This document shows, in pieces, positions 1 to 4,076 of a stretch of 4,076 nt of DNA. Below the pieces are notes generated by a model. It was not told the DNA's origin. It did not search any database and saw only the letters and a list, made by a program, of their open reading frames with translations. The position numbers were made by a program, and so were the translations under genes. How positions within the stretch are numbered: the stretch's first letter is position 1; every line of letters begins with the position of its first letter. Source of the stretch: a virus (lineage: Duplodnaviria; Heunggongvirae; Uroviricota; Caudoviricetes); IMG/VR virus record IMGVR_UViG_2654587728_000011, positions 1 through 4,076 of that record. The stretch is one strand, 5' to 3'.

Positions 1-331
1 TCTCCCCCGGGTCGCCCTTCGGTCCCTGAGGTCCGGTTGCCCCCACCGGGCCAGCCGCACCTGTTTCTCCTTTCGGTCCCTGTGGGCCTGCCGGGCCTGC
101 CGCACCGGTATCTCCCTTTGGACCCTGTGGACCTGCATTTCCCGTCAGACCGGTCTCTCCCCGCTCTCCCCTGTCACCTTTCGGCCCCTGCGGGCCTGCC
201 GGACCAGCATCACCTGCCGGTCCCCGTTCGCCGGTTGCCCCGACAGGGCCGGTGTCACCGCGCTCTCCCTTATCACCCTTCGGCCCCTGAGGACCCGCGG
301 GCCCCTGTTCCCCCTTTGGCCCGGGAGGTCC
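1..331 (-). repeat. Collagen-like Gly-X-Y triplet-repeat region inside stf (continues beyond window)
   Basis: Minus-strand translation from codon 331 downward reads [110 protein letters not shown], with Gly at every third position and no interruption to the window edge. The 273-aa Pro/Leu-rich plus-strand track ORF 37..858 is the antisense reading of this tract. Confidence 0.85.
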
Positions 332-1081
332 CACCACGGTGGGGATTCGGTTTACGGCGTCTTCCGCCGCTATCCTGCTTTGTTCCGCTGACTGTGCGCT
401 TTCTGCTGACTCCCGGGCTTTTTCTGCTGCGGTCGTTGCATCCCTGGATGCATTACCGGCTGCACTTTCTGCCGTCTTTCTTGACAATTCAGCTTCTGCT
501 GCACTTTGTGATGACTCACTGGCTTTTTGAGCGGCCGCAGAAGCCGAGGACGAGGACGCATCCTCTGACTGCTTTGCTGAGGCTGCACTTTCCGTCGCCT
601 GCCGGGCTGACTCCGATGCATCCCCTGCAGAAGTCTCAGCATTTACTGCACTCTTTTCCGCCTGGCCGGCTGATATACCCGCATTCCTCGCTGACGTCTC
701 TGCCTCTCCGGCATTCTTCTTCGCCTCCTCAGCGTGACGCGCTGCCTCTTCCACCATCTGTTCAAAACGACGCAGTGCCTCCGGACGGACATCATCCTCC
801 GTCATGGCACCGAGAAAATCATTCAGCGTACCCGGCTGAGAATCTTCATACACGGTGATGGTCCCGGCATGTGACGGCGGGAACCCCTCCACCAACAGAA
901 TAACGCTGTACTGACCGTACTCAACGTCCATACTGTAACGCCCGGCTTCATCCGGATTTTCTGAGGCCAGCGTGTTCACCACCACAGTGGTACTGTTACG
1001 TTTTGCTTTCAGCTGGATTGTGCAGTTCTGTACCGGTTTTCCTGTGCCGTCTTTCAGTACACCTGAAATCTTTACTGCCAT
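1..1081 (-). CDS. stf: Side tail fibre protein, lambda Stf-like; N-terminal ~360 codons, 3' end lies beyond the left window edge
   Basis: Minus-strand ATG at 1081..1079 preceded by a G-rich Shine-Dalgarno-like GGGGTG (1085..1090). I hand-translated the frame from 1081 to 841 and from 61 to 1 and found no stop; the absence of any track ORF starting at 1081 is consistent with the frame staying open to the window edge. N-terminus [90 protein letters not shown] is, by recollection, near-identical to the lambda Stf tail-attachment domain. It is followed by an Ala/Ser/Glu-rich segment and a Gly-X-Y tract. Position directly downstream of lom matches the lambda J-lom-stf order. Confidence 0.85.
340..750 (-). 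repeat. Ala/Ser/Glu-rich degenerate repeat (low-complexity, probably coiled-coil shaft) region inside stf
   Basis: Translation reads ...[125 protein letters not shown]. The plus strand shows the motif ctgcacttt at 462-470, 499-507 and 585-593, encoding the recurring (K/E)SA unit. Confidence 0.6.
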
Positions 1082-1090
1082 ATTCACCCC

Positions 1091-1119
1091 ACAAAAAAGC
1101 CCGCCTGAACCGGCGGGCT
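1091..1119 (-). terminator. Rho-independent terminator downstream of lom, upstream of stf
   Basis: Perfect 7-bp all-GC stem, plus gcccgcc (1099-1105) pairing with ggcgggc (1112-1118), 6-nt loop 1106-1111. The plus-strand A-run 1093-1098 gives a UUUUUU tract immediately 3' of the hairpin on the minus-strand transcript. It sits 27 nt after the lom stop. Confidence 0.7.
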
Positions 1120-1145
1120 GTCATAACACTGTGTTACCTGGCTAA

Positions 1146-1745
1146 TCAGAATTTATAACCGACACCCACGATGAAACCGTCAGTGCGCCAGTCACCACTG
1201 CCGGAGCCTTCATAAGCAATATCAATGGCCACGGACTCGGTCGGGTTAAACTGCACGCCAGCCCCCCACGCCAGAGACGTGTTGCTGTGGCAACCGTCAT
1301 CACTTCCGGTCAGCACATCGTGCGTTTTCCCCTTGTTGTCAGTTACGCGAAGATAATCCCCGGAGAAAGTCGACACACGGCTGTAAGCCACACCCGCCAT
1401 CGCATACGCGCTGAACCATTCATTCACGCGCACAGACGGCCCCGCCATCACGCTGAACCAGCGGTTACGCACGGAATCTTCATGCCAGCGGGTATCGCTG
1501 TAACGGGTAAGCTGGCGATTCTTGTCTCCTGCATAGCTGAATGACGTCACCAGCCCCAGCGTGTCCGTAAATTCATAACGGTATTTCACGTTAATCCCGT
1601 TCAGATCATCGCTGCCGGGAACGTTCGTCGGGGCATGAAGATACCCCGCGCTCAGTGTGGACTGATGTTCAGATGCCCATGCAGGCGCACCGGATACGGC
1701 CAGACAGATGGCTGCGGACAAAATGGCAGCACAAAATTTACGCAT
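1146..1745 (-). CDS. lom: Lom, Ail/Lom-family outer-membrane beta-barrel protein (lysogenic-conversion moron)
   Basis: 199-aa ORF with ATG at 1745..1743. N-terminal signal-peptide-like sequence [25 protein letters not shown]-terminal half ...[11 protein letters not shown]...[43 protein letters not shown] matches, by recollection, the lambda Lom C-terminus, ending in the aromatic residue typical of outer-membrane beta-barrels. Sits between J and stf as in lambda. Confidence 0.9.
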
Positions 1746-1750
1746 AATTA

Positions 1751-1756
1751 CCTCTC
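1751..1756 (-). promoter_or_regulatory. Shine-Dalgarno sequence for lom
   Basis: Minus-strand GAGAGG (plus cctctc at 1751-1756) with a 5-nt spacer before the lom ATG. Confidence 0.6.
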
Positions 1757-1766
1757 GCTTTTCTGC

Positions 1767-1793
1767 AATAAAAAAGGCACCATTTCTGGTGCC
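1767..1793 (-). terminator. Rho-independent terminator immediately downstream of the J stop, upstream of lom
   Basis: 7-bp stem, plus ggcacca (1776-1782) pairing with tggtgcc (1787-1793), 4-nt loop 1783-1786 that reads GAAA (GNRA-type) on the minus-strand RNA. Plus-strand A-run 1770-1775 gives UUUUUUAUU 3' of the hairpin on the minus-strand transcript. Lies 22 nt after the J stop codon (1815-1817). Confidence 0.7.
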
Positions 1794-1814
1794 CTTATAT
1801 GGGTTATAACAATT

Positions 1815-3227
1815 TCAACGAATACTGATGCCGGAAGCGGCTTTTTTGGTCACAATCACCGTACAGTCGGTGATATTACCTGCCCACTGATTGCCTTTAT
1901 GGAAAACCTTAAACTCCAGAGTGACGCTTCCCCTGCCACTCGGCATATCAATAACCGCACTGTAGCTACCGGGAATGGCCCCTTTAGTTTCTCTGGATGC
2001 GATTAATACACCGTTTTTGCGAACTTCAAAACCATAACCCGTGTAACTTGTACCTCCCGGGTTATTACCACTTCCCGGATAGCTATACGCTATTCCGTTA
2101 AAGATAATGGGCGGAATAATGATTTGACGGTCAAAGTTATGATCATCGCTGATGGTGACTGTAACCGTCCCGTTTGGTGTTTCCGTGTTACCCCACGTAC
2201 CAGCCTGTTTCGGGAATGATTTGGATACAGCTTTAACGAAGTCACCTCTGACCTGAGTCGCCTCCAGCATGCCCTTAATCGTACAGTTTTCATTTACCGT
2301 GACATTGTTGAGCGTCCCGGCGTTCGCATTCACACTGCCACTGATATCCGCATTTTTAGCGGTCAGCTTTCCGTCCGGAGTCAGGGAAAATGCCGGTGGA
2401 TTTCCACCGCTGGTAATGGTGGGGGCCGTCAGGCGTTTCAGGAACACGTCGTTCATGAATATCTGATCGCCCTGCCCAACAAACATCGGCTTTGTGTTGC
2501 CATTCGCAGGATTAATCATCGCAATCCTGTCCGCCGCCAGCAGCACCTGACTCTGCATGCCGTCAGGGGTGTTCTCAATACCGGCCCCGATACCCGCAAT
2601 ATAAAGGCGTCCGTCCTGCATCTGCTGCAGCTTCACTGCCCACATGCTGTTCAGGTTATTATTTGTATCAACCTGAACCTTCTGTATCTGCTGGATTGCC
2701 GCACTCTGGTCTTCCAGTTTCTTATTGACAGTCTGCGTGATTTCATTGCTGACATCCGTAATGGACGTCCTGATTTCAGCCAGGTCAGGCGCAAGCTGAC
2801 CGTTATCAATCTGCGTCCACAGCTCCTGAGCCAGATGGGTTTTCCCTATCTCGCCTTTGAAAAAATCCAGGTAACCTTCCGCATCATCGCTCGCCTGACC
2901 GACAGCCTCCACGAATGCCGATTTGCCAACGGTGTTCACACTGCGGATATAAAAGTAATAATCATGGCCCGGTTTGATATTGATACTGGCGGCTATCCAG
3001 TACAGCCCCGTGCCAAGATAGCGGGCTGTGGTTTCAACCTGCCTGATATCGGTAATCCGCTTTTCCGAGAACCAGAACTCAAACTGTACCGTCGGATCAT
3101 AAACCGCAAGATGCGGCGTGGCGGTTATCTGAAAATACCCCGGTATCAGCTCAATCAGTGACAGGCGCTGCCGGTGCCGCAATCCGGAACGATACCGACG
3201 CCGGATCACCCTGCTGCCCCCACGCAT
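1815..3227 (-). CDS. J: gpJ-like host-specificity protein, fragment 3 of 3 (frame C; C-terminal part including the receptor-binding end)
   Basis: 470-aa track ORF. The first ~22 residues ([22 protein letters not shown]) are out-of-frame read-through; gpJ homology begins at [34 protein letters not shown] (about 3161) and runs to ...[15 protein letters not shown], stop at 1817..1815. Confidence 0.85.
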
Positions 3228-3744
3228 TTACCGCCCGGACTGTCAGCCTGTAACGCCCCAACGCCAGCTGCCTGAAGCGGTATGTGGTTTCCGTCGTCCG
3301 GGCCGTGCTGACCAGCCGCTCACTGCCGTCATCCGCTGCCACGGTCAGGCGAAGCAGAAAGCTCACCCCCTTCACCACCTTCGGCGTGTCCCAGCGCGCC
3401 AGCACCTGATATTCCCCACTGTCTGCGGTGACTTCGGCGGTCAGGTGCTGCACCGCTGGCGGCGTGACACCATTCACCGTGCCGCTCTGGTCGCCGTCAA
3501 AGTGCGCCCCGTTATCCACGATGGCCTCTTTCTCCGGCACATGCTGCACAGCAGTGATGGCATACGTGCCGTCATCGTTCTCACGGATACTCACACAGCG
3601 GAACAGGCGCTGACGCAACGTCGGCAACTTCAGCCCCCACACGCTGTATTCGGCAACGCCGTCAGGAACCCGGTTCACTTTCACCTTAAGTCCGTCGGTG
3701 ACGGACTGAACCTCCACGCTCACCGGATTACCACTGCCCGTCAA
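3151..3744 (-). CDS. J: gpJ-like host-specificity protein, fragment 2 of 3 (frame B; fibronectin-III-like central region)
   Basis: Track ORF beginning at a TTG. The homologous part reads [81 protein letters not shown]...[30 protein letters not shown], then runs into out-of-frame VTD* with TGA at 3153..3151. Confidence 0.8.
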
Positions 3745-4076
3745 CCAGGCTTATCAGCGTGGTACCGGAGGATGGCAGCGTGATTTCACGGTCGAGCGTC
3801 AGCGTCCGGGTCTGGCTGTTCACCGCCAGCACGCGCCCGCCGGTGCTGATACCGGCATAGTCATCATCGCAGATTTCAATGACATCGCCCGGTACATGGC
3901 GAAGCCCTTCAGCACCCACGCTGAAGTCCACGGTCTGCGTTTCCAGCAGTTCTGTTTTAATCAGCCACAGCCCGGCGCGGTGTGCCTGCCCCCGACTGGT
4001 ACAGCCAAAGGCATCCATCTTCGTGACGTTACGACCGTAACGGGCAATGGCCTGCGTGTCCTCCACAAGCTCTGTT
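3728..4076 (-). CDS. J: gpJ-like host-specificity protein, fragment 1 of 3 (frame A; enters from beyond the window, ends at a frameshift-induced stop)
   Basis: Frame is open from the window edge at 4076 (TELVEDTQ...) down to TAA at 3730..3728. The track start at 4066 is an internal GTG, not a true start. Ends ...[14 protein letters not shown], while the lambda-like continuation SGNPVSV is in the next frame. Confidence 0.8.
   Translation of the reverse strand, partial: TELVEDTQAIARYGRNVTKMDAFGCTSRGQAHRAGLWLIKTELLETQTVDFSVGAEGLRHVPGDVIEICDDDYAGISTGGRVLAVNSQTRTLTLDREITLPSSGTTLISLVDGQW

Follow-up and report, generated by a model that had tools for sequence, protein, structure and literature searches.

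The lom gene of a lambdoid prophage forms an apparently promoterless cassette with its downstream terminator behind a hairpin of the J-stf site

Organization of the J-lom-stf junction

The analyzed stretch of DNA, 4,076 nt in length and called the window throughout, spans the junction of J, lom, and stf in a lambdoid prophage of the cdtI/434 type. The nucleotide identity is 98.6% to phage cdtI (NC_009514) and about 95% to phage 434 (OL657226), and a search with the window retrieved related sequence from 4,991 of 5,426 complete E. coli genomes. All coding regions are on the minus strand, in the order 3′ end of J, hairpin T1, Shine-Dalgarno (SD) motif, lom, hairpin T2, and an stf-like gene (Table 1). 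J and lom are separated by 69 nt, and lom and the stf-like gene by 64 nt. The coding strand has no intergenic gaps other than these two, and each of them holds one of the two hairpins.

Table 1. Features of the window and their positions
Feature	Position	Strand	Basis or remarks
J (tail-tip/host-specificity gene), 3′ two thirds	1815..4076	-	stop codon 1817-1815
J in three reading frames	ORFs 3728-4066, 3151-3744, 1815-3227	-	successive J domains
First J frameshift, 1-base insertion versus cdtI and 434	3736	-	alignment column 65
Second J frameshift, 1-base insertion versus cdtI and 434	3163	-	alignment column 638
T1, putative intrinsic-terminator hairpin with T-run	1767..1796	-	terminator scan, fold, covariation, annotation in phages 434 and 21
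lom cassette, presence/absence unit, 673 nt	1094..1766	-	aligned with L104, L095, phage 21, and L123
lom SD motif, GAGAGG	1751..1756	-	5 nt before the ATG
lom, Ail/Lom-family outer-membrane beta-barrel precursor, 199 aa	1146..1745	-	ATG 1745, stop codon 1148-1146
T2, putative intrinsic-terminator hairpin with TTTTTGT	1090..1119	-	terminator scan, fold, conservation, annotation in phage 434
Side-tail-fiber (stf-like) gene, 5′ part	1..1081	-	starts at 1081, runs off the window

The J region contains the Pfam domains Phage-tail_3, Ig_J, Ig_J_second, Phage_Tail_Tip, and Ig_GpJ_C. J is intact in phages 434 and cdtI and forms a single gene of 3498 nt in cdtI, whereas the J gene of the window is frameshifted twice. 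The motif of the first frameshift was not found in any fetched locus, and that of the second was found neither in the fetched loci nor in the searched genome contigs. The stf-like gene encodes a phage_tail_N domain (Pfam PF08400, 2e-69), which is followed by collagen-like repeats (Collagen, 5e-18). The comparative set consisted of 80 fetched viral contigs with the same Stf N-terminus, and in nearly all of them lom was found at the fixed distance of 64 nt from stf. The C-terminal domain of J varied between 40% and 100% identity across the fetched loci, while T1, lom, and stf were constant there.

The lom gene and its product

Membership in the Ail/Lom family and an SD motif of its own had been predicted for lom, and both were confirmed. 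The protein matched the Pfam family Ail_Lom (PF06316), which comprises 8-stranded outer-membrane beta-barrels, with residues 1-199 on profile positions 1-199 (1e-120, 401 bits at a cut-off of 23). The matches to solved structures included the lambda Lom chain 9wso_C (9e-51), OmpX (1e-18), and Ail (4e-17). By inspection, the signal peptide ends with AWA and is followed by SEHQ, and the C-terminus of the protein reads GVGYKF, the last residue being aromatic as is typical for barrels of the outer membrane. Compared with phages 434 and cdtI, the Lom protein of the window carries the exchange R152C. The SD motif GAGAGG is present in lambda and in 18 of 21 distinct upstream variants, the exceptions being AAGAGG (the L039 group, 8 loci), GAGAGA (L041), and GAGGTC (L006). 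For lambda Lom, adhesion is ascribed to Vica Pacheco (1997) in those passages of PMC3594210 and PMC1151598 that cite this work.

It had also been proposed that the N-terminal and loop regions differ from lambda Lom, while the C-terminal barrel strands are conserved. The first part of this proposal was borne out by the alignment to lambda Lom. The two Lom proteins are 47% identical, their N-terminal three quarters are divergent, and their C-termini are conserved. Most differences fall in stretches that align with the first three of the connections joining strand pairs, and a 7-residue indel is located in the first of these, the lambda protein being 7 aa longer. By analogy to the topology of OmpX, the divergent stretches would correspond to surface loops 1–3. 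The second part has to be modified, because the conservation is not confined to barrel strands. The last approximately 110 nt of lom have a nucleotide identity of 88–93% to lambda, and this block runs through T2 into stf. Because the identity at the DNA level continues beyond the gene, the conserved C-terminus is explained by a shared recombination block, which would include surface loop 4, and not only by constraint on the barrel strands.

Hairpins downstream of J and lom

The original prediction placed an intrinsic terminator behind J and another one behind lom. The positions of the hairpins, the GAAA loop, the 7 G-C pairs, and the distances to the stop codons turned out to be right within 1 nt. 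The core of T1, GGCACCA-GAAA-TGGTGCC (1793-1776), lies 21 nt past the J stop codon. Its stem extends to 10 pairs (1796-1773) and is followed by TTTTTTATT, the last base of which is 1767. T2 begins 26 nt past the lom stop codon and consists of AGCCCGCC-GGTTCA-GGCGGGCT (1119-1098), with 8 pairs, 7 of them G-C. The sequence TTTTTGT is next, and T2 ends 8 nt before the ATG of stf. Both hairpins were stable when folded, as had been expected. The values were −15.6 kcal/mol for T1 (z = −3.6; equalled by 1 of 200 shuffled sequences) and −18.2 kcal/mol for T2 (z = −2.8; at most 1 of 200 shuffled sequences was as stable).

In a terminator scan of the window, T1 and T2 were the top two sites. The scan yielded a total of 5 sites versus 3.2 ± 1.7 in shuffled sequences, so that the count alone is not significant, and the argument for the two hairpins is based on their position, conservation, and covariation. 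Both are G+C-rich stem-loops with a T-run that are located 3′ of an ORF on the coding strand. An Rfam scan of the window gave just two sub-threshold chance matches, one of which was a Trp-leader match caused by T2.

Across about 80 loci, T1 occurs in versions that keep the pairing in spite of sequence changes, i.e., GGGCACC/GGTGCC (window), GGGCGCC/GGCGCC, GGGCGTC/GACGCC, and GGCACCT/AGGTGCC. Of the 7 core pairs, 3 showed compensatory double changes (A-U to G-C, C-G to U-A, and A-U to U-A). When 15 distinct variants were aligned, the covariation score was reached by none of 500 shuffles, and 90.7% of the alignment cells were paired, compared with 38–61% in slid registers. The hairpin is followed by a run of 4–7 T in 20 of 21 distinct T1-region variants. 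Lambda has an unrelated and weaker hairpin at the same place, CGTCCG GGAA CGGGCG, which is followed by TTTTATT.

T2 hardly varies across about 80 loci, and the stem of lambda T2 has just one G-U change. A run of T6–T8 is kept in 30 of 31 T2-region variants, and in L079 and L082 the hairpin is replaced by an unrelated one, again with a T-run. Structure is maintained at both sites, by compensatory changes at T1 and by an invariant stem or an alternative hairpin at T2. The records of phages 434 and 21 already annotate T1 as a terminator, and the record of phage 434 also annotates T2.

The explanation that the hairpins are chance inverted repeats without function would agree with the count of the loose scan, but it can practically be dismissed. 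The hairpins fill the only two intergenic gaps of the coding strand, and no more than 1 of 200 shuffled sequences folds as well. Their conservation, which extends over hundreds of loci, and the compensatory changes of T1 contradict a chance origin.

A different function would be conceivable, namely that the hairpins mainly stabilize or process the 3′ ends of late mRNAs or act as recombination joints of tail modules. Several irregular loci fit this explanation. In L040, homology begins just 5′ of T1, in L005 a break is located between the T-run and the SD motif, in L071 a fusion places an unrelated gene within T2, L053 has an insertion just 5′ of T2, and L123 contains a chimeric T1 with an A·C mismatch. 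The variability of the J C-terminal alleles next to the constant T1, lom, and stf points in the same direction. However, it is only on the coding strand that canonical G+C-rich stems abut uninterrupted T-runs, these T-runs are nearly invariant at both sites, and the unrelated hairpins at the same positions (T1 in lambda and T2 in L079) also have a T-run. In addition, stabilization or recombination would be compatible with termination. It is thus quite improbable that these are the main functions. Taken together, T1 and T2 are credible intrinsic terminators, at which transcription would be expected to end.

Boundaries of the lom cassette

A scan of species-representative genomes led to two Escherichia loci with J directly before stf, L104 and L095. 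The matches in the protein scan of species-representative genomes were mostly lambda contamination in unrelated assemblies. The J C-terminus of L104 is 90% identical to that of the window. In L104, L095, phage 21, and L123, the lom-less junction consists of the J stop codon, T1, TTTTTTATT, and TGTGGAGTGA-ATG of stf. The stretch between TTTTTTATT and the stf ATG in L104 and L095 is TGTGGAGTGAGT. The same junction is present in ev207, Tritos, HannyBb, PhiR11_1, and others, so that the total including phage 21 is 18 phage records.

The frequencies of both arrangements were determined in the 5,426 complete E. coli genomes. The lom-less junction was found with at least 80% query coverage (201-nt query) in 261 of them, and the lom cassette, also with at least 80% query coverage, in 4,088. 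The median copy number of the cassette was 2 among genomes with any match to this allele type. A synthetic query representing a precise deletion was discarded, as two-piece matches were joined and the counts did not separate lom-less from lom-containing loci. Two candidates for lom-less comparators were also rejected. In HK97, J and stf are adjacent, but the stf type differs and the gap of 207 nt is without a terminator, which makes the boundaries uninformative. L071 is a rearrangement with an endolysin-like ORF fused into T2.

Alignment of the window with the lom-less loci delimited the cassette listed in Table 1. It comprises a 21-nt leader, GCAGAAAAGCGAGAGGTAATT, with the ribosome-binding site, the lom ORF, a spacer of 26 nt, the T2 hairpin, and most of the T2 T-run. 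The endpoints are ambiguous by 1–2 nt because one sits in the T-run of T1 and the other in that of T2. Identical boundaries were observed for three divergent groups of lom alleles, i.e., those of the window, of lambda, and of the L006 group. Judged from these alignments, the lom unit is an accessory-gene cassette that fits precisely between the T1 T-run and the ribosome-binding site of stf, and gain as well as loss is compatible with the data. All lom-less loci examined carry one stf 5′ allele (GTACAG, not GTAAAG). This single allele points to one old polymorphism as the origin of the presence or absence of lom, rather than to repeated deletions.

These boundaries also affect the role of T1, which had been regarded as the upstream bracket of a moron. 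This view was not supported, because the same hairpin directly precedes stf in lom-less phages. T1 is therefore best regarded as the resident terminator between J and stf, which lies outside the cassette. Of the two hairpins, T2 alone travels with lom, and when lom is present, T2 stands in the place of T1 8–12 nt before the stf start.

Search for a promoter upstream of lom

A transcription start site of lom had been predicted either in the 3′ part of J or in the gap of 22 nt. Both places are upstream of T1, so that a transcript from there would be terminated before lom, and the prediction is thus in conflict with the terminator claimed at the same time. A consensus scan of the coding strand revealed no sigma-70-like site in the window; weak, activator-dependent, and alternative-sigma promoters escape consensus searches. 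With a position weight matrix (calibration values: 14.4 bits for lacUV5 and 13.0 bits for lambda PR), the best site among the 700 nt that precede lom scored 8.1 bits, compared with a mean best score of 9.4 bits in shuffled sequences. The best score in the lambda region upstream of lom was 6.7 bits, which was likewise not above shuffled sequences. One candidate, TTCGTT-17-TATAAG, with a start inside the 5′ arm of T1, was rejected. It scored 6.4 bits, is devoid of the T at −7, and is not kept in T1 variants, e.g., CCCAGAACGGGCG.

The 21-nt leader of the cassette leaves no room for a promoter, and between the T-run of T1 and the lom ATG only the ribosome-binding site is found. As far as can be judged from the sequence, the lom cassette is promoterless. 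The description of lom as self-contained could not be upheld, as just 21 nt of the unit (1766-1094) precede the ATG and no above-chance sigma-70-like site was found in the 700 nt upstream.

Morons are defined as independent transcription units by which a phage genome has been extended (Juhala et al. 2000, in the summary given by PMC3594210). The classification of lom as a moron is correct in two respects. Lom is extra DNA between J and stf, which are separated by T1 alone in L104, L095, L123, phage 21, ev207, and others, and it has a factor-independent terminator, T2, downstream. It does not apply in two others, i.e., an own promoter, by the sequence evidence described above, and a distinct base composition. 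The G+C content is 55.7% for lom, 50.1% for the last 900 nt of J, and 54% for the first 400 nt of stf.

Expression of lom

The literature on the expression of lom is not uniform. Lambda Lom is classed as moron-encoded and prophage-expressed (PMC3594210, PMC7067206). In the passage of PMC1151598 that cites Reeve & Shaw (1979) and Chen (2005), lom is stated to be transcribed or made in repressed lambda lysogens, and PMC7067206 reports likewise. An array study failed to detect lom in lysogens and described the lom promoter as little known (PMC2147009). Strong expression of lom during the lytic cycle is attributed to Liu (2013) in the citing passage of PMC9836094. A study of lambda sRNAs (LPR2, 6S) does not mention lom. 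The 24B_1 "microRNA" of the lom region of phi24B was set aside; it belongs to a short-tailed Stx phage, where it is located downstream of lom in a different context, and is outside the window.

The reports on lysogens would fit a self-contained moron with a constitutive promoter, either in the 3′ end of J or overlapping T1, that is expressed in the prophage, insulated by T1, and terminated at T2. Apart from its classification in the literature (PMC3594210, PMC7067206, PMC1151598), the absence of lom from lom-less phages and the terminator downstream of lom would agree with this possibility. Nevertheless, we consider it unlikely. The leader of the cassette is just 21 nt, the upstream 700 nt are without an above-chance promoter site both here and in lambda, and the best site near T1 is of low score and not conserved. 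Any start in the 3′ end of J would be upstream of T1, and T1 also precedes stf in phages that have no lom. Furthermore, lom escaped detection in the lysogens of the array study (PMC2147009), and the G+C content of lom is not distinctive compared with the 50–54% of its flanks.

On the basis of the junction anatomy, the conserved and covarying T1 hairpin, the delimited cassette, and the missing promoter motif, we infer the following scheme of termination, antitermination, and the source of the lom transcript. Lom and T2 probably form a promoterless cassette behind the resident T1, which is read chiefly by Q-antiterminated late transcription. The lambda Q protein renders RNA polymerase terminator-resistant across the whole late operon. 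During lytic growth, Q-modified polymerase would read through T1 and T2, and the late transcript would serve for the expression of J, lom, and stf. As long as the prophage is repressed, unmodified polymerase arriving from upstream would be halted at T1, and polymerase that reached lom would be halted at T2, before the tail-fiber genes. If T1 stops polymerase, the expression of lom in lysogens, if any, would therefore need leakage through T1 or an unrecognized weak promoter overlapping T1. The reports of lom expression in lysogens argue for some Q-independent promoter and thus against Q-dependent late transcription as the chief source.

A tentative extension, which we regard as possible but doubtful, is that the level of lom in the lysogen is set by leakage through T1 and that the T-runs of the terminators are the joints at which the cassette is gained, lost, or swapped between tail modules. 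If the leakage were confirmed, lom, a supposed lysogenic-conversion gene, would be primarily a late lytic gene that is kept for a role in the lytic cycle.

Comparison with known systems

For lambda, 434, and 21, descriptions or annotations already exist of the lom gene, of its location between J and stf, and of both flanking terminators. The increments of the present analysis are the exact boundaries of the cassette and the assignment of T1 to the site, not to lom. The significance beyond annotation is small, and the useful refinement is the concept of a mobile unit of ribosome-binding site, lom, and T2, apparently promoterless and located behind the J-stf terminator.

The gene order is shared with the J-lom-stf (orf-401) region of lambda (NC_001416, 18,903-19,650). 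The context of the lom start (T-run, GAGAGGT, ATG) is also shared, and the 3′ approximately 110 nt of lom, T2, and the 5′ end of stf have about 90% nucleotide identity. In contrast, the C-terminal receptor-binding domain of the lambda J protein is a different allele with about 49% identity, and the putative loops 1–3 of Lom as well as the T1 hairpin differ, as described above. Phages 434 and cdtI have the same J-lom-stf arrangement with 95–98.6% nucleotide identity over the entire window. The record of phage 434 is annotated in the order terminator, ribosome-binding site, Ail/PagC/OmpX porin, terminator, ribosome-binding site, and side tail fiber. T1 of phages 434 and cdtI is identical to that of the window, and so are the hairpin and the T-run of T2. 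In phage 434, one base differs 6 nt past the T-run.

The lom-less lambdoid phages and prophages, including phages 21, ev207, and Tritos, share with the window the type of the J 3′ end, the T1 hairpin, and the T-run, as well as the class of stf (phage_tail_N), which starts 12 nt past the T-run. They have neither lom nor T2, so that the hairpin before stf is T1 itself. There is a slight difference in the 5′ allele of stf, which is GTGGAGTGA...GTACAG in these phages versus GTGGGGTGA...GTAAAG in the window.

The morons of HK97 and HK022, as described in the passage of PMC3594210 that refers to Juhala et al. (2000), resemble lom in being extra genes between late genes that are adjacent in relatives, in being followed by a factor-independent terminator, and in having an envelope product that is possibly useful to the lysogen. 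Lom is unlike them in that no promoter was found in or beside the inserted DNA, its base composition is not distinctive, and the upstream element would be the terminator of the recipient site.

Homologues of Lom are also encoded at other sites. STM1043 of Gifsy-2 is an Ail/Lom homologue between M and L, beside sodC, and the lom gene of the P13374/933W type is located after the tail fiber genes. As in the window, the Gifsy-2 and P13374 homologues lie in the late structural operon and have a hairpin and a T-run past the stop codon. In contrast, they have a protein identity of 31–41%, other insertion sites, and no terminator immediately upstream. This pattern fits a unit that consists of the gene and its own terminator, with T1 being specific for the J-stf site.

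Reading frames and encoded proteins of the window

In the window, J is divided into three reading frames by two single-base insertions, neither of which lies in a homopolymer run. The insertion motifs were not matched among the fetched loci or the species-representative genomes. Either the frameshifted J is a pseudogene, or the insertions are sequence errors. If J were a pseudogene, the prophage would be defective, with lom still intact.

The encoded Lom protein has a cysteine (TGC) at residue 152, within the long third variable stretch, whereas 66 related loci encode an arginine at this position (GSDDGRHSN). A solved structure of the 206-aa lambda Lom is available (PDB 9wso chain C, titled 'Outer membrane protein lom'). 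The most distinct composition within the window was found in the tail-fibre gene, at its long collagen-like repeats.

Coordinates of features in the window and in two related loci
Feature	Sequence	Position	Strand	Remark
Single-base insertions in J	window	3736 and 3163	-	inserted by comparison with phages cdtI and 434
Codon of Lom residue 152	window	1292-1290	-	TGC
Collagen-like Gly-X-Y repeats, tail-fibre gene	window	1-330	-	about 70% G+C
Chimeric T1, lom-less locus	E. coli SCU-115, NZ_CP054368 (L123)	about 249,170-249,215
lom ORF as annotated	phage P13374 (L124)	1234-1968		244 aa
Promoter-like site	phage P13374 (L124)	1296-1325		TGCACA-18-TACAAT
Hairpin and T-run after lom	phage P13374 (L124)	1992-2010

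Related loci

The J allele of the SCU-115 locus, in which lom is absent, is identical to that of the window. The two arms of its T1, the intrinsic-terminator hairpin that follows J, read GGGCACC (5′) and GGCGCC (3′), which leaves an A.C mismatch. The hairpin has the appearance of a recombination joint located in its loop, between the window-type J allele and the lom-less stf module.

Five further loci carry degraded or rearranged copies of the region. In L071 (2776-3000), the 3′ arm of T2, the hairpin between lom and stf, carries a fused endolysin-like ORF, and in L053 a 2-kb insertion separates lom from T2. Unrelated sequence takes the place of T1 in L005; the breakpoint falls after the T-run and before the SD motif of lom. 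In L087 and L115 lom itself is interrupted, which resembles the IS5-disrupted lomR of K-12.

Lambda Lom with 100% identity was found on contigs of low coverage in L089-L099 and in several short loci of the genome-contig protein scan; several of these contigs have a length of about 48.4-48.5 kb. The respective assemblies are labelled Pseudomonas, Shewanella, Oceanobacillus, Leeuwenhoekiella, Kitasatospora, and others, and they are almost certainly contaminated with phage lambda DNA.

The lom region in phages P13374 and phi24B

The annotated lom ORF of phage P13374 exceeds the roughly 200 aa of the Ail/Lom family, and the promoter-like site lies within its 5′ extension. The arrangement of these elements suggests that the real start may be further downstream, with a promoter in front of it. 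The gene is followed by a hairpin and a T-run, whereas for the lom region of another phage, phi24B, a published ARNold search reported no Rho-independent terminator.
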